Below are positions 13,136 to 48,378 of a DNA stretch of 48,378 bases, piece by piece. The stretch lies in contig LCOA01000012.1 of the NCBI GenBank assembly GCA_001002405.1, positions 1 through 48,378 of the forward strand, written 5' to 3'. The DNA is from Candidatus Amesbacteria bacterium GW2011_GWA1_47_20 (GTDB taxonomy: Bacteria > Patescibacteriota > Microgenomatia > CAZETR01 > Amesbacteraceae). The notes below the pieces were generated by a model, which had not been told where the DNA came from, did no database searches, and saw only the letters and a list, made by a program, of their open reading frames with translations. Position 1 is the stretch's first letter, and each line of letters opens with the position of its first letter. Position numbers and translations under genes: made by a program.

Positions 13136-13347
13136 TCTTGAATTATAACGTAGGGGGGATTATATTATCCGTATGGCAGTGAAGAAAAAGGACGATCTGA
13201 TAGGAGGAGAATTAGATCCCAAGGAGGAAAAAATGCTGGATTGGATATTAAATGCAGTAGTGATCTTCGTCCTAGGCTGGCTGGGATTGGGAATACTTCT
13301 GTCCGTCGGGGGCCTATTTCATCTGTGGGGATAAGTTTTGTATAGTT

Positions 13348-13520
13348 TTGTTCACTTTTGCTCGTGCTAAAAGTGAACCGAAAAGCACGCCCGCCAGATG
13401 AGCTAAAAATGCACAGCAAGGAATCCCAATGCACCCCGATAGCCATCGGGATTGGAGCCGTGACTAACCAACGTGCTTGCTGTGCACTTTTTTGACGCTC
13501 ATGCCCTGGCGGGATTAGCC
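13348..13520. ncRNA. unclassified structured element, copy 1 (strand undetermined)
   Basis: Homologous to 24832-25004, with compensatory changes in three helices. Intergenic. Confidence 0.6.
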
Positions 13521-13667
13521 CCCTTGATTTTTAGAGAGAGGGAGAGTTTAATGGGGGTATGGATGGCGGATGAGGTTTATGTTGCAGGAGGGCCGGATAA
13601 AGGGCGAGTGGGTGACCATGATGGTGGCAGCCTCTGGTACCAACGGAGTTGTTTGGGTGGTTGGTGT

Positions 13668-13699
13668 GTTCCACCTATGTTCCACCTAAGAGGTGGAAC
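13668..13699. repeat. GTTCCACCT half-site followed by the GTTCCACCT-AAG-AGGTGGAAC palindrome (copy b)
   Basis: GTTCCACCTATGTTCCACCTAAGAGGTGGAAC followed by ATTTTT. Confidence 0.9.
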
Positions 13700-13744
13700 A
13701 TTTTTCTCCTTTGACGAGTTTTATCCGAAAGCGGTAAGATTGGC

Positions 13745-14230
13745 TTGATGGATTTTGAAAATGCAAATTGGTGGAAATATTTGACCGATCCCATGCGGGA
13801 TCTGGCGGGAGAAAGCTTTATTTTGTTGGAGAGGGAGGAAAAGTTACAGGAGGGGTTGCATGATTATAGCTTTGTGGTGTTTCCGATGGCGAAGGCGTAC
13901 GAAGGATTTTTGAAGAAGTTGTTTTATGACTTGGGACTGATTAATAAAAAACAATATGGTGGAGACCGGTTTAGAGTGGGGAAAGCTCTGAATCCTAATT
14001 TACCTAAAAGGTATCAGTGGGATTGGGTGTATGACAGGTTAACGCTAGCGTGTAAGGGGGAGGAAACGGCCATGGAGATGTGGGAGGTGTGGAAGAAGGC
14101 CAGAAACCGGACTTTTCACTTCTTCCCCGACCACCACGAGTTTATTTCTTTGGAACAAGCGAAAGAATTAATCGGGGAAATTGCGGATGTGATGGAAAAG
14201 TCCCTGATACAGTGCGATAGGGTTGGTTGA
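13745..14230 (+). CDS. hypothetical protein with a HEPN-like RNxxxH motif
   Basis: 161 aa, predicted helical, with KKARNRTFHFF (Rx4H). The family assignment is tentative. Confidence 0.45.
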   Translation: MMDFENANWWKYLTDPMRDLAGESFILLEREEKLQEGLHDYSFVVFPMAKAYEGFLKKLFYDLGLINKKQYGGDRFRVGKALNPNLPKRYQWDWVYDRLTLACKGEETAMEMWEVWKKARNRTFHFFPDHHEFISLEQAKELIGEIADVMEKSLIQCDRVG

Positions 14231-14897: not shown

Positions 14898-15344
14898 ATG
14901 CGATGTCCATTTTGCGCTAACTCGGAGACATCCGTGTTGGAATCAAGAGTAGCAGAAGACGGACAAAGCTTAAGAAGGCGGCGCGAGTGTGAGAAGTGTC
15001 AAAAGCGCTTCACGACATTCGAAAGAATTGAGGGACCGACAATTTTTGTGATCAAACGGGATGGCAGCCGCCAACCATTTGACAGGGAAAAGATTGTCCG
15101 GGGGACGATCAAATCCTTTGACAAAAGACCAGTGTCGATTGACCTGATTAATCAATTGGCCGATGAAGTGGAAAGGGAGGTCAGGCGCAAAGAAGTGTCT
15201 GAAATTCCTTCGAAAACCATCGGTCGGATAGTTTTGAAGAGGCTGAAAAATATCGACAAAGTGGCCTGGATGAGATTTGCCAGCGTATATCTGGAGCTGA
15301 CAGATCTGACCGAATTCGAAAAGTTATTTGAAAAAATTTCTTGA
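14898..15344 (+). CDS. nrdR: transcriptional repressor NrdR
   Basis: MRCPFC...ECEKC zinc ribbon followed by an ATP-cone. Confidence 0.95.
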   Translation: MRCPFCANSETSVLESRVAEDGQSLRRRRECEKCQKRFTTFERIEGPTIFVIKRDGSRQPFDREKIVRGTIKSFDKRPVSIDLINQLADEVEREVRRKEVSEIPSKTIGRIVLKRLKNIDKVAWMRFASVYLELTDLTEFEKLFEKIS

Positions 15345-15348
15345 AAAA

Positions 15349-15531
15349 ATGCCTTATTTACAAATATCAATAAATGATGGCGAAAGGATTAAACAACCCA
15401 CGCCTTGTTTAAAATGTGGGCAACAAATTAGTCCGTACTATTTGTCACCGGTAAAACTTGAGGACGGGAGAACCTTTTTGGTGAATAGGTGTTTAAGCTG
15501 CGGATTTTTTGGGGAGGGAAAAAATGTTTAA
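15349..15531 (+). CDS. small zinc-ribbon protein
   Basis: CLKCG ... CLSCG pair of CxxC motifs. Confidence 0.4.
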   Translation: MPYLQISINDGERIKQPTPCLKCGQQISPYYLSPVKLEDGRTFLVNRCLSCGFFGEGKNV

Positions 15532-15805
15532 TCCGACGGCTGAGGTGGCAGAGGGAAAAGTGGCCGTAGAATGGTTGATGACGAGATTGGCCGAAAGGCT
15601 ACCGCAAGCGAGAAAAATGGATTTTATTATTTCTGCGATGGGGTATGATTCAACAGAGGCGGCGAGATTGTCTGGAGTGAGTGGGGCGAGAGTGCGGGAG
15701 TCGTTAGCTTACGCTGGAGTGGAGTTAAGGCAGATGGCAGAGGAGGATCCTAGTATAGCTGAAATAGTGAGGGAGTTAGGTAGAGAAAGGGCAGAGTTCT
15801 GGTGA
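15524..15805 (+). CDS. small HTH protein (sigma region-4-like)
   Basis: The STEAARLSGVSGARVRESL helix-turn-helix-like segment. Confidence 0.4.
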   Translation: MFNPTAEVAEGKVAVEWLMTRLAERLPQARKMDFIISAMGYDSTEAARLSGVSGARVRESLAYAGVELRQMAEEDPSIAEIVRELGRERAEFW

Positions 15806-15811
15806 AGGAGG

Positions 15812-16132
15812 GTGATGAACTGGGATCTTGTACGTGATGTTGTGTACGCAGGAGTAGAGAGGGGAAACGGATCGCTGAGAGGGGAAGGAAGTACACCTAG
15901 TGGTGTAGTGGCGGCTGCTTTGGGACTGGCGATGAATGTAATTGGAGAAAAAATCGGAGACGTGGCCAATGCGGGGACTCCGGCCGTTCTTCTGGGAGGA
16001 GATGAAGCTGAGGTGTTGCAACTGCTACAACGAGCACAGAGGGTGGTGGGTGATGGAGTGGATGGGGATGGAGACGCCAGTGTGCGAAAAGTAAAGGGGT
16101 TGGTGGCAATTGCTTTGAGCCAATCGCATTGA
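15812..16132 (+). CDS. hypothetical protein
   Basis: 106-aa ORF with no motif. Coding status is uncertain. Confidence 0.3.
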   Translation: MMNWDLVRDVVYAGVERGNGSLRGEGSTPSGVVAAALGLAMNVIGEKIGDVANAGTPAVLLGGDEAEVLQLLQRAQRVVGDGVDGDGDASVRKVKGLVAIALSQSH

Positions 16133-16159
16133 ATAGTGGAAGAGCTATAATAGTGACCG

Positions 16160-17146
16160 ATGATTATTACCAGGACACCGCTACGGATTAGTTTTTTGGG
16201 AGGGGGGACGGATTTTCCGGATTTTTATAAGAAATATGGAGGGTGTGTGGTGACAACAGCGATTGATAAGTACGTGTATGTAATCGTCAAGGAAAGATTT
16301 GATAAGCAAATTTATGTAAATTATTCGATTAAAGAAATAGTAGACAGAGTAGGAGAGTTAAAGCACGAACTGGTGCGGGAGGCCATGAGAAAAGTAGGAG
16401 TTAAAGACGGAATTGAAATTTCGTTTCAATCTGACGTACCGTCCTCGGGATCCGGATTAGGGTCGTCCAGTACGGTGACAGTGGGAACTCTGAATGCTTT
16501 ATATCAATACACCGGGCGGGCGGTGGATGCCCAGAAATTGGCGAGAGAGAGTTGTGAGATAGAGATAGAGAAGTTGGGGAAGCCCATTGGGGTGCAGGAC
16601 CAGTATATCGCGGCTTTCGGAGGAGTAAGATTTTTGGAGTTTAAAAAGTCTGGGAAAATCGTGGCGGAAGATTTGCAACTGTCGGAGGAAATCTTAGATG
16701 ATCTGAAAAGCTGTTTAATGGTGTTTTATACCGGCCGGACACGGGCAGCGGGGAGTATTTTGCAGGAACAGAAAGAAAATATTAAAGCAAAAAATGTAGT
16801 GCTGATGAAAATGGCCAAACAAGCCCGAGAGGCCAAGGAGCTATTGGTGGCGGGCAAGATTTACTCTTTGGGGAAACTGATGGATGAAGGATGGAAATTG
16901 AAGCGGCAATTGGCCAGCCGGATTAGCGACCCGGAAATTGAGCGGATGTACAATGCGGCTAAAAGAGCAGGGGCAATCGGGGGCAAGATTTCCGGGGCTG
17001 GGGGAGGAGGATTCCTGACGCTGTTTGTGCCAACGGGAAAAAGGGAAGCGGTGAGAAAAGCAGTTACGGCCTGCCTGCCGGCAGGCAGGGAGATGCCGGT
17101 GGGATTAGCTAGAGATGGGAGTAAAGTTATTTTTAATATCCGTTAA
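16160..17146 (+). CDS. GHMP-family sugar kinase (heptose-phosphate kinase-like)
   Basis: TRTPLRISFLGGGTD and PSSGSGLGSSS (GHMP motif II). Confidence 0.85.
   Translation: MIITRTPLRISFLGGGTDFPDFYKKYGGCVVTTAIDKYVYVIVKERFDKQIYVNYSIKEIVDRVGELKHELVREAMRKVGVKDGIEISFQSDVPSSGSGLGSSSTVTVGTLNALYQYTGRAVDAQKLARESCEIEIEKLGKPIGVQDQYIAAFGGVRFLEFKKSGKIVAEDLQLSEEILDDLKSCLMVFYTGRTRAAGSILQEQKENIKAKNVVLMKMAKQAREAKELLVAGKIYSLGKLMDEGWKLKRQLASRISDPEIERMYNAAKRAGAIGGKISGAGGGGFLTLFVPTGKREAVRKAVTACLPAGREMPVGLARDGSKVIFNIR
17063..17100. repeat. GC-rich hairpin insert inside the GHMP kinase 3' coding region
   Basis: Contains the perfect 20-nt palindrome CCTGCCTGCCGGCAGGCAGG (17070-17089). It shares GTTACGGCC and ATGCCGG with 18733-18778. 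Confidence 0.6.
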
Positions 17147-22932: not shown

Positions 22933-22960
22933 AATTCTAAATTCTAAACCCTAAACCCTA
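22933..22960. repeat. heptamer tandem array (AATTCTA x2, AACCCTA x2), intergenic
   Basis: Read directly from the sequence. Confidence 0.8.
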
Positions 22961-23437
22961 AACAGTTTGTAATTGGTGGTTGGTGTGAGAGAGGAATTTG
23001 AGGAAGTCATCCAGACTGATTTCTAAGGTGGCAGTGTTGGTGTTGGGGTGGAATAGCAGTTTGTCTTTGGTCGTTAGCCTTTGGTCGACGAGAACGGTGA
23101 CGAGGTGATTTTTGTCATTGATTAAACCGAAGGGGGAGACGGAGCCGGGAGTGAGGCCCAGTATAGCTTTTAGCTCTTGGTCGCTTGCGAAAGTTAGCCG
23201 GGACGAGAGATTCAAGGATTTAGCCAGTTGTTTTAGATCGGCCCGCTGGGAACACGCCAAAATGTACAGAAAGTAGTGATGAGAGGTTTTTTGGGTTTTT
23301 AAAAACAGGTTTTTGGTGTGGGCGGCTTTGGAGCTGATCCAATATTTGTCGGCATCAGCGCAGGTATACACCGGAGGGTGGTCGAGGCGGGTGTATTTAA
23401 TGTTTAGGGAATCAAGAAGTTTGAGGATATCGGTCAT
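22958..23437 (-). CDS. YbaK/ProX-type aminoacyl-tRNA deacylase domain protein
   Basis: HTKNLFLK and PGSVSPFGL blocks. Confidence 0.8.
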   Translation of the reverse strand: MTDILKLLDSLNIKYTRLDHPPVYTCADADKYWISSKAAHTKNLFLKTQKTSHHYFLYILACSQRADLKQLAKSLNLSSRLTFASDQELKAILGLTPGSVSPFGLINDKNHLVTVLVDQRLTTKDKLLFHPNTNTATLEISLDDFLKFLSHTNHQLQTV

Positions 23438-23449
23438 GGGCCGATTATA

Positions 23450-24325
23450 TTACAGTTCAACGAGGCGAGTGGTTAAAGGTCCAGAACAGGGTTTAATGAA
23501 GTCGAGGTATTTGGTGGTGGAAGTGAGGCGTTTGTGGCCGACGATTTGGGATAGATATTGGGGATCGCAGCCGGCGGAGAGCTGGTGGGCCATGAAAGTA
23601 TGGCGCAGATCATTGACTTTGGTTCCTTTGACGTCGGCCACTCTAAAAAACCTGTCGATGGCGGTTCTGATGTTTCTGATTAACAAAGGATGGCCAGTTT
23701 TGGTGACGAAAAGATGGGGGTCGGTTACAGAAGGACGAATGGCTAGATAATTGGCAACGGCGGTGGAGACATATTTGTTGAGGGGGACAGTTCGTCCGGC
23801 GTTATTTTCCTGGGGGCGAATGTACACCTCTGTTTTTTTGATGTCTTCAGTATGCAGGTTAGCAAGTTCTGAGATGCGCATACCGGTTTGTAAGAGGAGT
23901 TCGACTACCGCTGACATCCTAATATCTAGGCGGACAGCGTCGCGTAGGGAAGAGTATTCGGCGGGGGTGAGAATGCGGGGGGCAGAAGACTCATATTTAG
24001 GATGGGCTAATTCAGAGGCGGGGTTGGTGGGGGTAAGATTATTTTGATTTAGGAATTTAAAAAATGTTTTGAGGGAATTAATCTTGCGACTGACTGATTT
24101 GGCGGTATAACCATTGCTTGATAACGAGAGAAGATAGTCTTGGAGGTGTTGGGAGACAAGAGTGGTGACTTGGGTAATGCGGCGTTCTGCGAAGTGTTTT
24201 TTGAGCTGAATAAGATCGCTGTTATATGCAATAACAGTAGCAGAAGAGCGCCTTTGGGTTTTGAGATAGGTTACAAACTTCTCTAGGGCGATGTCGAAGC
24301 TAACTGGTGTGGGTAAGGTATTCAT
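23450..24325 (-). CDS. tyrosine recombinase (XerC/XerD-like)
   Basis: RISELANL, HDLRHTF and GHKRLTSTTKYL catalytic blocks. The ORF extends to 24379, but Met at 24325 is preferred. Confidence 0.85.
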   Translation of the reverse strand: MNTLPTPVSFDIALEKFVTYLKTQRRSSATVIAYNSDLIQLKKHFAERRITQVTTLVSQHLQDYLLSLSSNGYTAKSVSRKINSLKTFFKFLNQNNLTPTNPASELAHPKYESSAPRILTPAEYSSLRDAVRLDIRMSAVVELLLQTGMRISELANLHTEDIKKTEVYIRPQENNAGRTVPLNKYVSTAVANYLAIRPSVTDPHLFVTKTGHPLLIRNIRTAIDRFFRVADVKGTKVNDLRHTFMAHQLSAGCDPQYLSQIVGHKRLTSTTKYLDFIKPCSGPLTTRLVEL

Positions 24326-24380
24326 ACTACAGGTTATCTTTCGTTTAGGGATTCTACAAGATATGATGGAAAGAAGCAAT

Positions 24381-24731
24381 ATGAAAGTAAAAAATAAACT
24401 GGTGTATTGGGGAGCAGTGATAGTGCTGGGGGTGTTTACGGTAAGGCTAGGGAGGAATGTGTGGAAGCTGTGGAAAGCGGGGGAGAGAATAAAGCAAGCC
24501 GAGTTAGAAGTCAGGAGTCAGGAGCTAGAAAATCAAGAGCTGCAAAAGAGGTTGGCGGAGGTGCAAAGTCCGGAATTTATAGAAAAAGAGGCGAGAGAGA
24601 AGTTGGGACTCGGGAAGGAGGGAGAAACGATCGTTGTCATGCCTGACAACGCAGATCTCAAATCTCAAATCTCAAATCTCAATGGCGAGCCTAACTGGCG
24701 GAAGTGGTGGAAGGTGTATGTAAGTGATTAG
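24381..24731 (+). CDS. septum formation initiator (FtsB/DivIC family)
   Basis: TM segment, coiled coil, and SPEFIEKEAREKLGL. Confidence 0.75.
   Translation: MKVKNKLVYWGAVIVLGVFTVRLGRNVWKLWKAGERIKQAELEVRSQELENQELQKRLAEVQSPEFIEKEAREKLGLGKEGETIVVMPDNADLKSQISNLNGEPNWRKWWKVYVSD
24655..24682. repeat. heptamer tandem array (ATCTCAA x4) in the FtsB-like 3' coding region
   Basis: Encodes DLKSQISNLN. Confidence 0.85.
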
Positions 24732-24803
24732 TGGCTGGGGAGAGATTCGGACTCTCAACCGTGGTCTTATGAAGGCCCTGCTCCGCCATTGAGCTACCCA
24801 GCC
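24732..24803 (-). tRNA. tRNA with anticodon CAU (Met or Ile2) and a weak anticodon stem
   Basis: GGCTGGG/CCCAGCC acceptor, GCTC/GAGC D stem, loop TTCATAA, GAGAG/CTCTC T stem. The anticodon stem GGGCC/GACCA has two mismatches. Confidence 0.65.
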
Positions 24804-24831
24804 ATAAATTTATGCCCATATATTTTACCAT

Positions 24832-25004
24832 TTGTTCACTCTTTGGTCGTGCAAAGAGTGAACCGAGAAACACGCCCTCACGATTGGCTAAAAATACTGC
24901 GCAAAACTATCCCTATGCGCCCCGATAGCCATCGGGACTGGAGCCGTGACTGTTCAACGTGTTTGCGCAGTATTTTCTAGACGCCAATGCGCGTTCGGGA
25001 TAGG
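24832..25004. ncRNA. unclassified structured element, copy 2 (strand undetermined)
   Basis: Aligns end to end with 13348-13520, with compensatory helix changes. Confidence 0.6.
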
Positions 25005-25013
25005 CATGAAATG

Positions 25014-25116
25014 TGATATAATTACGTGGTTAGTACGCTGAGGGAACAACCCAGGCGCTAACCCGGAGATCCAATATGTATATGAAGATGTGGATTGAAG
25101 GGAGAGCGCCTTTTTT
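25014..25116 (+). ncRNA. candidate small transcript (extended -10 promoter through an intrinsic terminator)
   Basis: TGATATAAT at 25014-25022. GGCGCT...AGCGCC hairpin at 25054-25110, followed by TTTTTT. Confidence 0.3.
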
Positions 25117-25226
25117 ATTTAAAAAAATTGGGGTTGAAAACCTAGTTTGCCTTCAAATAATGTGGGTCTATATCATCAATATGATGAATATTATAAAAAA
25201 TCAAGTGAATTTTTCTGGTAACACAT

Positions 25227-25940
25227 TCAAAATGTTTGACTGGGTGGGAGTTCCTTGGTGGGTGTGGGTGTGGTTGTTAATCCTGTTATCAATCCTTTTA
25301 TTTTCTTTAATAAGTCGGTACTCTTAGAAATTCTGATTCTTAGGGTTCCGAAGTAATTTTCTGGATGTTCATATATCTTTTTCCAGGTAGATTTTTGATA
25401 AAAAGGGCGGTTAAATTGAGATAGGGGAATTTGGGTAAGTTTTGACCAATAATTTTCAATTTCTTTAGTCCGATGATGGTGGCTTTCATTAATGCCGACC
25501 CGGAGTCTAATTTCGCTTGTGGGAATGTCTAATTGGTTTTGGAGCCAGCCTAGAGCAAATTTAATCATTTCTGGATCGGTATTGGCGAAACCCGCCATTT
25601 TGTCTTTTTTGAATCCTTCGGCCCAATAGAGAGCAGTGCCAGCTATGAGTTTTTCCCTATCGGAGAGGTTTCCGATTAGATTTTTGGCTTCTGATTTAAT
25701 TTGCTCCTCTTTTACTTTTCTGGTGAGCTGCTGTTTGAGAGAGTAGGAGAGACGACGGCCATAGAAAGGGTCTTTTGAGTTTTTTTCGAGTTGAGCTATT
25801 TGTTTTGTAGAAAGTTTTATGTCTCTACACCACAAGCTTGCAGTACTAGATGAAACTTCTAGATCTCTGGCAATGTCTTTAATACTCTTACCTTCAATCC
25901 TAAGTTTCCTAGCTTCAATTTTGAGCCTGCTTTTTGCCAT
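25227..25940 (-). CDS. HTH protein with a divergent LAGLIDADG-like core (possible free-standing homing endonuclease)
   Basis: N-terminal GKSIKDIARDLEVSSSTASLW HTH. GTALYWAEGFKKDKMAGFANTDPEMIKFALGWL resembles a LAGLIDADG helix, beta hairpin and helix. Low GC. Confidence 0.4.
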   Translation of the reverse strand: MAKSRLKIEARKLRIEGKSIKDIARDLEVSSSTASLWCRDIKLSTKQIAQLEKNSKDPFYGRRLSYSLKQQLTRKVKEEQIKSEAKNLIGNLSDREKLIAGTALYWAEGFKKDKMAGFANTDPEMIKFALGWLQNQLDIPTSEIRLRVGINESHHHRTKEIENYWSKLTQIPLSQFNRPFYQKSTWKKIYEHPENYFGTLRIRISKSTDLLKKIKGLITGLTTTPTPTKELPPSQTF

Positions 25941-26014: not shown

Positions 26015-26074
26015 AATGGATTTTGTACTTCGACTCACTACGTTCGCTCAGTACTGCGTCGCTTACGCTCCTTG

Positions 26075-26265
26075 TTGCGGGGCCGGGAATCGCACCCGGT
26101 CTGGAAGATTATGCTTGATCTGTAATCTCAAATTACTTTGAGTGTCGGACTATATCATTACCCCGAAGGGGGGGTGTCCACCGATATAGCCAAATTTGCT
26201 ACTCCGAATTACTTCGGAGAGGGCCCATACTACTAGCCTTCCGTGCGGCTTTACACTACCCCGCA
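26075..26265 (-). tRNA. tRNA(CAU) gene interrupted in the anticodon loop by a 121-nt insertion
   Basis: Exons give GCGGGGT/GCCCCGC acceptor, GTGT/GCAC D stem, GAAGG/TCTTC anticodon stem, loop CT^CATAA and CCGGG/CCCGG T stem once 26114-26234 is removed. Confidence 0.65.
26114..26234 (-). mobile_element. 121-nt structured insertion (mini group-I-like intron candidate)
   Basis: The 5' exon ends in U and can pair GGCU with the intron's GGCC. The insertion ends in G. Hairpins: CUCCGAA-GUAA-UUCGGAG, CCCC-UUCG-GGGG and CUCAAA-GUAA-UUUGAG. It also carries AUGAUAUAGUCC. Confidence 0.45.
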
Positions 26266-26288
26266 TGTCTATTTTAAAGAACCTTGTC

Positions 26289-26297
26289 ATTATATCA
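26289..26297 (-). promoter_or_regulatory. extended -10 element (TGATATAAT) upstream of the split tRNA
   Basis: The reverse complement of ATTATATCA. It lies about 24 nt upstream of the tRNA 5' end. Confidence 0.5.
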
Positions 26298-26323
26298 CTT
26301 AATTGAGGCTGATTTAAACCAGT

Positions 26324-26686
26324 CTAGAAAGGAGGATTTGTTTCTTCTTCTCGTTTTTTTATTCTGGTGCGGAGGGCTACTGCACCTTTTTCGTGGCTTT
26401 TAACCTGGAAAGGACAGCTGCTGCCTTGAACTCGGGTTTCCAGCCCGTCCGGTCCGGTATTTGTTAACAGGCAACCGAATTGTTCCCCCCTGTCAGGGTG
26501 TGAACAGATGGCGTGGTAGTAAGCACGAATCCGATTCTTAGTGTCTATTCTTGGATAGGCATAGCTGAAAGCTACGCAATCTACTGGCAACCTCGCTCCT
26601 CTTTTGGAGGGAGTTAGGAGCTTAGGTATTTTTCTGAGAATTGCGAAGAGGGAGCGTTGTAAACTTTCTGGGTATTCCTTTGTCAT
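26324..26686 (-). CDS. hypothetical Cys/His-containing protein (internal Met start preferred)
   Basis: ORF 26324..26788. Met at 26686 avoids overlap with the divergent nuclease gene. Confidence 0.4.
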   Translation of the reverse strand: MTKEYPESLQRSLFAILRKIPKLLTPSKRGARLPVDCVAFSYAYPRIDTKNRIRAYYHAICSHPDRGEQFGCLLTNTGPDGLETRVQGSSCPFQVKSHEKGAVALRTRIKKREEETNPPF

Positions 26687-47196: not shown

Positions 47197-47271
47197 AATA
47201 CGGAGGCTGTATGACGCAGACTTGCTCATTGACATATTTATTGTCTTTTAAGAAGTGGTAGGAATTTTTTT

Positions 47272-47314
<43 letters not shown>

Positions 47315-47569
47315 TAGGCATGCAAGTAAAACGGGTCCCGCAAGGGACAAGTTGCAGACGGGTGAGTAATACATAGGAATCTACCTTTTAGTGGGGAATA
47401 GCTGGCCGAAAGGCCAATTAATACCGCATAAGATCGCAAGATGAAAGGGCGTAACTGCCCGCTGAAAGATGAGCCTATGTCCTATCAGCTAGTTGGTGGG
47501 GTAAAAGCCTACCAAGGCGATGACGGGTAGCTGGACTGAGAGGTCGGTCAGCCACAATGTTACTGAGAT

Positions 47570-48273
47570 CGAAATGTAGGTCTCCCGTACTGGTAACGGT
47601 ACGGAAAAACTCAACTAATAACGGTGAAATCCATCAGTACTTGACTTCGTATAAACTTCGGTTTAGCATGGAGTTAATGTACGTTTGGGATAATACCGTG
47701 GGAAGCTCTATCAGAGTAAGCCCAACAGTGCTAGCTTATATTGCAGGATTTCTAGACGGAGATGGATGTATCAAGGTAACGATAGCAAAGCGTGATTACG
47801 CTAAGTTTGGGTATTACTTTCGAGTGATCGTGAGTTTTGCTCAACATATTAGAGATAGACGGGTTTTAGTTTGGATAAAAAGCAAACTAAAAGTAGGGTC
47901 AATTTCTGATTACGATTTACCTGGTAAACAAGTCTCTGAATATGTTATTCAGGATAGGAAGTTCAATTTTAGATTGTTGTTTAATTTACGTCCCTTTGTG
48001 GTCGTTAAAAAAAGACAATTAGAATTGGCTTCAGAAATTCTAAGTTTAAAAGATAAGGTTAAAAACCCTATTTCTTTTAAGCGAGCAATGAAAGCAGCGA
48101 TGGAAATTAGAAGGCTAAATAGCCCTTCTAAATTTGATAGTAGCCCCGTAACGACTCATATGGGAGGTACCAGATAATCTGGAATACAAACTTCCATTAT
48201 ATGTTGACGCCCGGTATGGGTATCGGGATGAAGATATAGTCTGATCCCCCGAGTAATCGGGGTAAACACAATG
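47570..48273 (+). mobile_element. group I-like intron in 16S rRNA (near E. coli position ~330)
   Basis: The exon ends GAGAU and can pair with the intron's GUCUC at 47580-47584. The intron ends in G. It carries AAGATATAGTC and a CCCCGA-GUAA-UCGGGG hairpin near its 3' end. Ligated exons restore ATGTT-ACTGAGATACGG-AACAT. Confidence 0.7.
47668..48177 (+). CDS. LAGLIDADG homing endonuclease (single-motif, I-CreI-like size)
   Basis: LAYIAGFLDGDGCIKV. About 169 aa from ATG 47668, and low GC. Confidence 0.85.
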   Translation: MELMYVWDNTVGSSIRVSPTVLAYIAGFLDGDGCIKVTIAKRDYAKFGYYFRVIVSFAQHIRDRRVLVWIKSKLKVGSISDYDLPGKQVSEYVIQDRKFNFRLLFNLRPFVVVKKRQLELASEILSLKDKVKNPISFKRAMKAAMEIRRLNSPSKFDSSPVTTHMGGTR

Positions 48274-48378
48274 ACGGAACATACGACTACGGTCGGCAGC
48301 AACTAGGAATATTGCGCAATGGACGAAAGTCTGACGCAGCGACGCCGCGTGGAGGATGACGGCCTTCGGGTTGTAAAC

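Follow-up and report, generated by a model that had tools for sequence, protein, structure and literature searches.

An orphan structured element of about 175 nucleotides, found in two diverged copies in a groundwater Amesbacteria genome

Orphan non-coding RNA motifs of the Breaker/Weinberg type, as collected in Rfam, are intergenic, approximately 100–200 nt long, and combine covarying stems with conserved loops and bulges. Their range is narrow, and their function cannot be read from the neighbouring genes. ERIC/IRU sequences and the Rickettsia palindromic elements are long imperfect palindromes in intergenic DNA, patchily distributed among relatives, in which the hairpin is kept; these and similar families also show compensatory change. 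6S RNA folds as a rod with an open conserved region, and is present as two paralogs in Bacillus. Integron attC sites and other sites that act as folded single-stranded DNA keep their structure above the sequence of their stems, which are purely Watson-Crick and carry conserved extrahelical bulges. The element described here shares features with each of these, and also differs from each.

It comes from the candidate phyla radiation (CPR), bacteria with tiny genomes and little non-coding DNA. To our knowledge, almost nothing is known of small RNAs or non-coding mobile elements in this group, and a search of the literature on structured non-coding RNAs in CPR/Patescibacteria found no paper describing such an element. 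The window (the whole stretch of DNA analysed, 48,378 nt) belongs to a groundwater member of Microgenomates/Amesbacteria. Stretches identical to it are found in GCA_001002455.1 and in several aquifer metagenomes, and the best protein relatives of its genes are annotated as Amesbacteria or Microgenomates.

An initial sequence-only reading had noted two copies of an intergenic element, at 13348-13520 and 24832-25004, and both are located there. They are more alike than the two thirds identity then estimated: blastn gives 77% over 171 nt (E 5e-31) and global alignment gives 74.6%. A 32-nt core, CCCCGATAGCCATCGGGANTGGAGCCGTGACT, has 2 exact occurrences in the window, compared to 0 expected from shuffles. 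The limits of the two copies are as follows.

13347..13518, + as written, which does not imply the folded or transcribed strand: element copy 1 (covariance model 205-211 bits).
24831..25004, + as written: element copy 2 (covariance model 207-213 bits).

The edges of copy 1 were set by comparison with a relative's locus that lacks it (the empty site L008), and fall between ggataaGTTTTGTATAG and CCCCTTGATTTTTAGAG. Those of copy 2 were set in the same way from the empty site L018, and homology to the orthologous copy in L016 stops at window position 25001.

A scan of JGI metagenome contigs with ATCGGGANTGGAGCCGTGAC yielded six loci, representing four distinct variants. Two of these loci, L015 and L017, are the window's own copies. 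L013 and L016, from Hainich groundwater, carry one variant, adjoining tRNA-Met, and L012 and L014 carry another, adjoining a tRNA cluster; a later look-up added L054, which is identical to L012. Covariance-model search confirms that further homologs exist, though they are few. The model built from the two window copies scores the other variants at 148-178 bits, while two models (R1 and R2) run on the syntenic loci of relatives, reached via homologs of PBP, DivIC and NUDIX, produced L054 as the sole further copy. No copies beyond the known variants were found in approximately 200 kb of related loci. One core pattern searched against 185,579 GTDB representative genomes gave a single chance match, in a high-GC actinobacterial MAG; three patterns searched against viral contigs gave chance matches only, and blastn against phage and plasmid collections found nothing similar. 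The four variants thus come from three Amesbacteria, a very narrow known range.

Both copies have the same overall plan: a 5' hairpin (P1), then a rod (about 30 bp, interrupted by two conserved bulges), then a near-invariant apical domain of about 55 nt. The parts are listed below, with a prime marking the 3' strand of a helix.

13350..13378, + strand: P1, the 5' hairpin of copy 1 (13350-13359 with 13369-13378), GTTCACTTTT / AAAAGTGAAC.
13390..13420, + strand: 5' strand of the rod in copy 1, with P2 (13390-13397), P3 (13398-13403), P4 (13405-13409) and P5 (13410-13420).
13421..13475, + strand: apical domain of copy 1, with P6 (CCCGAT 13435-13440, loop AGCC, ATCGGG 13445-13450) and the block TGGAGCCGTGACT.
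13476-13486, 13488-13492 and 13493-13496, + strand: apical half of the 3' strand of the rod in copy 1, being P5', P4' and the unpaired TGAC, respectively.
13497-13502, 13503-13505 and 13506-13513, + strand: basal half of the same strand, being P3', the bulge GCC and P2', respectively.
24834..24863, + strand: P1 of copy 2, GTTCACTCTTTG / CAAAGAGTGAAC.
24875..24905, + strand: 5' strand of the rod in copy 2, with P2 (CCC 24875-24877 and ACG 24880-24882) and P3 (ATTGGC 24883-24888).
24895-24905, + strand: 5' strand of P5 in copy 2, TACTGCGCAAA.
24906..24961, + strand: apical domain of copy 2, with P6 (24921-24926 with 24931-24936).
24962..24999, + strand: 3' strand of the rod in copy 2, with P5' (24962-24972), GAC (24980-24982) and P3' (24983-24988).
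24989-24999, + strand: end of that strand, with the bulge GCG (24989-24991) and P2' (CGT 24992-24994 and GGG 24997-24999).

P1 conserves the sequence of its stem but not that of its loop. The stem ranges from 10 to 13 bp across the four variants by means of paired insertions, with a total length of 29 to 32 nt; the paired insertion of C and G that distinguishes the two window copies had been seen earlier, and is verified in the sequence. This change of length by paired insertions fits a hairpin, and argues against a double-stranded operator with fixed spacing. The linker that follows consists of CCGArAA and a variable portion. Within the rod, P4 of copy 1 is a run of A paired with a run of T. 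Both bulges lie on the 3' strand and are present in all four variants, one being the unpaired GAC between P4 and P3, and the other the 3-nt bulge GC(C/G) between P3 and P2. The apical region forms approximately 57 consecutive near-invariant columns in the alignment of the four variants.

The four helices proposed by the sequence-only reading all agree with the sequence, as do their coordinates. The long-range helix ATGAGC/GCTCAT (13398-13403 with 13497-13502), which is P3, is exactly as described. The inner helix, GCACAGCAAG/CTTGCTGTGC (13411-13420 with 13476-13485), is also present, but its true length is 11 bp: this is P5, and the extension covaries, with AAG/CTT of copy 1 replaced by AAA/TTT in the second copy. 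The list of conserved blocks needs one correction, in that CACGCCC is not a conserved block in the two new variants.

Both copies fold better than shuffled sequence, whichever strand is taken: the z-scores are -6.5 and -3.2 for the + strand, and for the - strand -6.2 and -4.8. RNAalifold run on the two copies predicts 47 pairs, and in 8 of these both sides have changed in a compensatory way. It also predicts an additional apical helix (P7), which was dropped because its sole variable pair is better explained as the extension of P5. Pseudoknots between the linker and the apical loop were rejected for the reason that the linker varies while its proposed partner is invariant.

Covariation was then counted on a model-based alignment of the four distinct variants, using a hand-corrected structure of 43 pairs; with four sequences this is a count of pairs and not an R-scape test. 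Standard pairs make up 98.8% of the paired cells (four variants, 43 pairs). Changes on both sides are seen in 11 pairs, all of them in P2, P3 and P5, and the observed pairing and number of double changes were reached in 0/500 shuffles. When the 3' partners are slid by 1-3 columns, 33-46% of cells are paired and 0-2 double changes are left. P2, P3 and P5 each exist in three different versions, compared to the near-invariant apical columns; for P3 these are the fully complementary ATGAGC/GCTCAT, ATTGGC/GCCAAT and ACAAAC/GTTTGT. P1 and P6 hardly vary, and P6 is the same in all four variants, so that covariation neither supports nor contradicts it.

The proposal that structure is selected here, and that the two copies are not simply a decaying repeat, is supported: the covariation signal increased on adding the two further variants, and the slid registers collapse. 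Comparison of the variants shows that the predicted single-stranded fold is under selection, with changes in the sequence of the rod tolerated provided that complementarity is kept. In addition, the orthologous pair formed by copy 2 and L013 is 86.6% identical, compared to 72.9% for the adjacent flank of DivIC and tRNA-Met. The element thus evolves more slowly than its surroundings, which suggests purifying selection on it.

The element does not belong to any family that we could recognise. Neither copy, on either strand, matches any of the 4227 models of Rfam 15 at gathering thresholds. In E-value mode (E up to 5-10), searches with copy 1, copy 2, L013 and L054 gave only chance matches (E 0.06-9), and these were to unrelated families, among them models of miRNAs and snoRNAs. 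The earlier view that this is no known RNA family therefore holds for all variants and both strands. ARAGORN finds no tRNA or tmRNA at either copy, and the only tRNAs called in the window by ARAGORN and Rfam are tRNA-Ile and tRNA-Met, both outside the element. 6S RNA gives no match to its Rfam model even at E<=10. It was rejected also on structural grounds, since the apical side has only a 6-bp hairpin, and on distribution, since the element has no orthologs at the orthologous sites of sister species.

Nor does the element appear to code for protein. No ORF is shared among the variants: a 12-codon ATG frame in the core has no start codon in L013, and the long ORFs of the other strand are not the same in the two copies. 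The ORFs that overlap the element had been called spurious. This applies to 13165..13446 and to 24789..24980, and to 13473..13748 only in part, as the 3' part of the latter looks like a remnant of real genes. No reverse transcriptase, transposase, integron integrase or CRISPR feature was found in any neighbourhood. A retron msr-msd or a DGR repeat was considered and rejected: there is no RT domain in the neighbourhoods, and the differences between copies are not adenine-specific, but involve all four bases and are paired in helices.

On the basis of these observations, we tentatively propose, with slightly less than even confidence, that the element is a gene for a structured small non-coding RNA of about 175 nt, lineage-restricted and accessory, of which the window carries two old paralogs. 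The proposal rests on a selected structure (covariation, together with folding z-scores from -3.2 to -6.5), on conserved loops combined with variable stems and an evolution slower than that of the flank, and on a sequence that is non-coding, outside known families and, in L013/L016, apparently stand-alone. The points against it are that there is no register-conserved promoter and that the terminator in L013 is not the element's own. Wobble pairs are nearly absent, the range is narrow, the closest relatives lack the element, and there is no shared partner gene. Several of these points favour other explanations, which are considered below with the evidence that bears on them.

The scarcity of wobble pairs bears on whether the selected molecule is RNA or DNA. 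Among the 172 cells of the 43 hand-corrected pairs there is one U-G (L012, P5) and one A-C (copy 1, columns 69/148), or about one wobble per strand. The raw tally is 8 G-U to 1 A-C, but most of these cells lie in the rejected P7 or in misaligned columns. For the consensus structure the two strands come out equal in energy, and the lower minimum free energy of the - strand arises from alternative G-U pairing in the invariant apical region. With almost no wobble and equal energies, the neutrality of the sequence-only reading between RNA and single-stranded DNA is still right. Scarce wobble is unusual for an RNA, and would fit a constraint that acts on DNA or is strand-symmetric; this is a real point in favour of such a constraint. 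On the + strand, A and C are slightly enriched among the unpaired positions. Scans for consensus promoters, run on both strands, gave none that keeps its register among the copies. The genomic context mildly favours the + strand: copy 1 follows 13 nt after a gene for a 53-aa protein, L013 has a + strand terminator, and the L012 copy runs into the ribosome-binding site of NUDIX.

A site of recombination or initiation that acts as folded single-stranded DNA, in the manner of integron attC, the attP hairpins of CTX phage, single-strand origins or oriT, would explain stems that are Watson-Crick on both strands and the conserved extrahelical bulges. A gene for a Xer-like tyrosine recombinase lies 450 nt from copy 2, with a gene for a TraG/VirD4-like coupling protein also nearby, and the element is linked to breakpoints of an inversion and of an indel, described below. 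We nevertheless consider this explanation improbable. The Xer-like and coupling-protein genes are conserved in relatives that lack the element, and the one inverted segment, in L012, is flanked by the element at one end only. An attC site specifically was rejected since the foot of the long stem reads CCCGCCAG/CTGGCGGG or a variant of it, which are not the R''/R' boxes (RYYYAAC / GTTRRRY), and neither a cassette array nor IntI is present near the element.

The immediate neighbours of the two copies are two genes that are context and not part of the element.

13173..13334, + strand: gene for a small hydrophobic protein of 53 aa, ending 13 nt before copy 1.
24731..24803, - strand: tRNA-Met gene, divergent from copy 2, with its 5' end 28 nt away.

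Copy 2 had been noted to abut a tRNA gene, and both ARAGORN and Rfam identify the tRNA-Met at this distance. The adjacency is repeated in L013 (tRNA-Met) and in L012 (tRNA-Arg gcg). Overall, in 3 of the 4 contexts, representing two independent loci, the element is positioned 28-40 nt upstream of a divergent tRNA gene. A TAAAAT box is found between the element and the tRNA gene, and it is found also at the empty sites. It follows that the tRNA has a promoter of its own, and that the element does not serve as its leader. Copy 1 had been placed between a PBP gene and a HEPN-like gene, which is correct except that the conserved 53-aa gene intervenes on the PBP side (tblastn with the L008 protein, 87% identity). 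A tRNA containing a group I intron is also nearby.

Downstream on the + strand the four contexts are all different. Copy 1 is followed by a gene remnant and then by the HEPN gene, which has its own conserved promoter, and copy 2 by an uncertain 83-aa ORF. The L013 copy is followed by a terminator (L013 positions 1928-1954, 5 nt after the element) and then a convergent tRNA. In L012/L054, P2' continues directly into a GGAGG located 13 nt ahead of the ATG of NUDIX. It is this last arrangement that raises the question of a cis-regulatory leader, either riboswitch-like or a protein-binding 5' UTR, for the downstream gene on the + strand: the closing helix in L012/L054 could mask the ribosome-binding site of NUDIX, and a conserved core with variable closing stems resembles an aptamer. 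However, four different downstream features, with no gene in common, imply that there is no common cis-regulatory role; the L013 context strongly disfavours a leader, and the NUDIX orthologs of relatives have no such leader. We therefore regard this explanation as highly improbable.

The L013/L016 element occupies all of the space from the promoter region of tRNA-Met to the terminator, with no downstream gene following. The same terminator is found at the L018 empty site, so it predates the element and belongs to the neighbouring tRNA gene. No partner gene shared among the four neighbourhoods was found.

The element is accessory: sister species have empty sites at all three loci. At the PBP site, L008-L011 lack it. 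In these relatives, whose PBP is 76-84% identical, the order of PBP, the 53-aa gene, HEPN, DUF5667 and NrdR is kept. The empty site of L008 reads ggataaTTTTGGGGGTTGATTTTTAGAGAG..., while the window has the element between ggataaGTTTTGTATAG and CCCCTTGATTTTTAGAGAG. The stretch 13521-13744, which was considered as a possible part of the element, is in common with the L008 empty site and was excluded; it is promoter-like at first, followed by the gene remnant, which looks like a fusion of two L008 genes.

At the tRNA-Met site, L018, L024, L025 and L031 keep DivIC followed by tRNA-Met, and have no element. The flanks of the L018 empty site are the same as those of L016, with aattttacc on the left and AACCAAAAATCCCACC on the right. 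The relative nearest to L016 in the flank is L024 (81.8% identity). It also lacks the element, and the distribution is thus patchy. In the window, copy 2 ends on the right exactly where an insertion of approximately 1.07 kb relative to L016 begins, and this insertion carries a gene for a 237-aa HTH/LAGLIDADG-like protein, possibly of the homing-endonuclease kind. This protein was rejected as a partner of the element, since a 66% identical homolog is found in L025, itself without the element.

At the NUDIX site, L032-L045 and L050-L053 have no element, and the NUDIX orthologs there lack such a leader sequence. These loci have tRNA-Arg(gcg), tRNA-Ser(cga) and tRNA-Arg(ccg) on the NUDIX strand. 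In L012 the same three tRNAs are inverted compared to L032 and L050, and the element lies exactly between the promoter end of this cluster and NUDIX, so that it marks one end of the inverted segment and not the other.

The accessory status of the element and its location in rearrangement-prone spacers next to tRNA genes make a selfish or mobile origin a serious rival to a housekeeping RNA. It could be a non-autonomous palindromic element of the ERIC/IRU, Rickettsia palindromic or MITE-like kind, or the solo end of a larger mobile element, inserting into permissive tRNA-adjacent spacers. The hairpin would then persist because mobilisation, or tolerance by the host, depends on the folded state of the single-stranded DNA or of its transcript. 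This is the main rival explanation, and we consider it unlikely, though by no means negligible. It would account for presence and absence at three loci among close relatives, including the lack of the element in L024, and for the position of the L012 copy exactly at the breakpoint of the three-tRNA inversion. It would likewise fit the meeting of copy 2 with the 1.07 kb insertion and its HTH/LAGLIDADG-like gene, the nearby tRNA with a group I intron, and stems that are almost purely Watson-Crick. The L012 copy is moreover a mosaic of copy-1-like and other parts.

On the other hand, there are no terminal inverted repeats, and no target-site duplication is recognisable at the junctions (window compared to L008, and L016 compared to L018), although the empty sites are those of other, diverged species. 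No transposase is found nearby. Only two copies of the core motif were found for this organism, and at 75% identity these are as diverged as copies from different species, which gives no hint of recent transposition. Similarity among the copies follows the site that they occupy, as seen for copy 2 and L013 (86.6%), and this fits vertical descent with losses. Furthermore, it is the centre of the element that is conserved and the stems and ends that vary, the reverse of what is expected in a MITE recognised by a transposase.

A MITE was also rejected more directly. The element begins with TTTGTTCAC on the left and finishes with GGGATTAG on the right, two sequences that do not form an inverted pair; its inverted repeats are internal. 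The copy number is against it as well, with two copies in the window, 75-77% identical, and only these two types recovered by the metagenome scan from the organism's samples. A derivative of IS200/IS605 (PATE, omega-RNA) was rejected on the grounds that P1 has no counterpart at the right end and that the neighbours have no transposase domains.

A small RNA gene and a selfish element are not exclusive, since a small RNA gene can behave as a cassette. A further explanation is a new kind of small mobile structured nucleic acid in CPR bacteria, an RNA or folded single-stranded DNA cassette which would settle next to tRNA promoters and be involved in rearrangements there. A recombinase or nuclease with its gene at another place in the genome might use it as a scaffold for recognition or guiding, and the covarying rod and invariant apical domain would then have roles like those of bridge-RNA or omega-RNA scaffolds. 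We consider this quite improbable.

To return to the small RNA gene, which is the explanation that we prefer, a possible mode of action can be outlined. The rod would act as a scaffold, and the invariant apical domain and the bulges would form the working surface, to which another nucleic acid, or a protein whose gene is elsewhere in the genome, might bind. Variable but strictly complementary stems that bear invariant bulges and an invariant apex, in an element that changes more slowly than its flank, are the pattern expected of a functional folded nucleic acid built in this way. Transcription is probably from the + strand. Where the element adjoins a tRNA gene, it may start in the AT-rich spacer that the element has in common with the divergent tRNA promoter, whereas copy 1 would be transcribed by read-through from the 53-aa gene. 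The RNA of the L013 variant may end at the terminator directly after the element. The gene would be dispensable, and gained and lost as a small cassette in tRNA-adjacent spacers that tolerate insertions.

Whichever explanation applies, this is a real and new orphan element, with good support for its structure and a known range that is very narrow. In genomes as small as those of CPR bacteria, an element of 175 nt that is kept twice, and that evolves more slowly than a neighbouring gene, is unlikely to be junk. If it is an RNA, it represents a well-supported orphan family, ready for a seed alignment in the style of Rfam, and would point to the existence of a partner, either protein or RNA. In the case of a selfish palindrome, it would document such elements in CPR genomes, together with their tie to tRNA-adjacent rearrangements. 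The practical value is limited by the range, a few groundwater Amesbacteria only.

It remains to compare the element with the systems listed at the start. Among folded single-stranded DNA sites, integron attC is like the element in keeping structure above stem sequence, in its conserved extrahelical bulges and in its pure Watson-Crick stems. The element, however, has no R/L box consensus, cassette array or integron integrase, and its long apical domain is conserved in sequence, where the terminal structure of attC is variable. With 6S RNA it shares a similar length, the rod with an open conserved region, and the presence of two paralogs in one genome. It differs in having, beyond the open region, a 6-bp hairpin and no second long stem, and an extra 5' hairpin; and 6S is a core gene, whereas the element is absent from sister species. 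ERIC/IRU and the Rickettsia palindromic elements resemble it as long imperfect intergenic palindromes of patchy occurrence with the hairpin kept. Unlike these, the element has two copies per genome, no terminal inverted repeats or target duplication were seen, its centre is conserved, and it has an additional conserved 5' hairpin outside the palindrome. The orphan RNA motifs of the Breaker/Weinberg type differ from it in that the element has no match in Rfam 15, has near-zero wobble and is dispensable among sister species; but they resemble it in being intergenic and non-coding, in their covarying stems with conserved loops and bulges, in their size and narrow range, and in having a function that is not apparent from the neighbours.

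The genes on either side of copy 1 of the structured element can be compared with those of L008 and L011, two relatives at the penicillin-binding protein (PBP) site that lack the element.
13173-13334, + strand: 53-aa ORF, divergent from the PBP gene
13551-13748, + strand: short ORF, an apparent fusion of two L008 genes
14898-15344, within the region 14898-16160: NrdR repressor gene

The C-terminal half of the 53-aa ORF is hydrophobic (LDWILNAVVIFVLGWLGLGILLSVGGLFHLWG). It has a counterpart in L008 at 87% identity and another in L011, and this retention marks it as a conserved small membrane protein gene. The short ORF appears to take its N-terminus from a 195-aa gene of L008 and its C-terminus from a 133-aa gene (FDEFYPK...) of the same locus. 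It has a strong terminator-like hairpin within it (13677-13701), and is probably a deletion remnant.

The NrdR gene is followed by a class II ribonucleotide reductase gene in L008 and L011, but not in the window, and a tblastn search with the L008 reductase as query found no remnant of it anywhere in the window. The NrdR of the window therefore looks orphaned. It adjoins about 800 nt with no convincing ORF.

The surroundings of copy 2 contain the following features.
22958-23437, - strand: YbaK-like editing domain gene
23450-24379, - strand: Xer-like tyrosine recombinase gene
25005-25120, + strand: stretch between copy 2 and the 237-aa gene, with a -10-like box and terminator-like sequence
25227-25940, - strand: gene for a 237-aa protein
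about 26071-26330, - strand: tRNA gene split by a group I intron (also L015 1350-1556 and L016 304-503)

Matches to Pfam and NCBIfam are strong for both the YbaK-like and the Xer-like gene. For 22958-24379, the public annotation of contigs L002-L004, which are identical, gives small + strand ORFs instead, and the source records look mis-annotated here. Three to four tandem copies of the heptamer AAATCTC (about 24657-24683, + strand) lie in the 3' portion of the DivIC-like gene.

Features of the 237-aa protein are an N-terminal HTH and a motif, LIAGTALYWAEGFKKDK, which may be LAGLIDADG-like. Compared with L016, a groundwater locus, its gene lies within about 1.07 kb of inserted sequence, and its homolog in L025, a tRNA-Met site relative, is 66% identical and in the opposite orientation. 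Between copy 2 and this gene an extended -10-like box, TGTGATATAAT, precedes a terminator-like GGCGCT...AGCGCCTTTTTTATTT by about 80 nt; the region may be a small transcript in its own right or form the beginning of an 83-aa ORF.

At 26170/26171, 88 nt present in the metagenome locus L015 and in L002 are missing from the window and L004, these contigs being otherwise identical. Without these 88 nt the window gets no Rfam call for the group I intron, whereas L015 scores 68 bits. The gap reflects a strain-level deletion within the intron, or else a discrepancy between assemblies.

At the NUDIX site, a three-tRNA block (Arg-gcg, Ser-cga and Arg-ccg, with their promoter) is inverted in place in L012 (7405-7683), which carries an element variant, compared with the element-free L032 (2259-2498) and L050 (398-636), and is bordered by the same two protein genes in all three. 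Relative to both, inversion in L012 also affects the tRNA-Ser(gga) gene that follows NUDIX, and L012 has gained a HAD hydrolase gene by insertion.

A further insertion lies in the 16S rRNA gene.
47266-48378, + strand: 16S rRNA gene, from Rfam alignment

It occupies 707 nt of the 5' domain (about 47570-48276), the Rfam alignment skipping 707 nt against 3 in the model at that point. Insertions of this kind in rRNA are typical of CPR bacteria.
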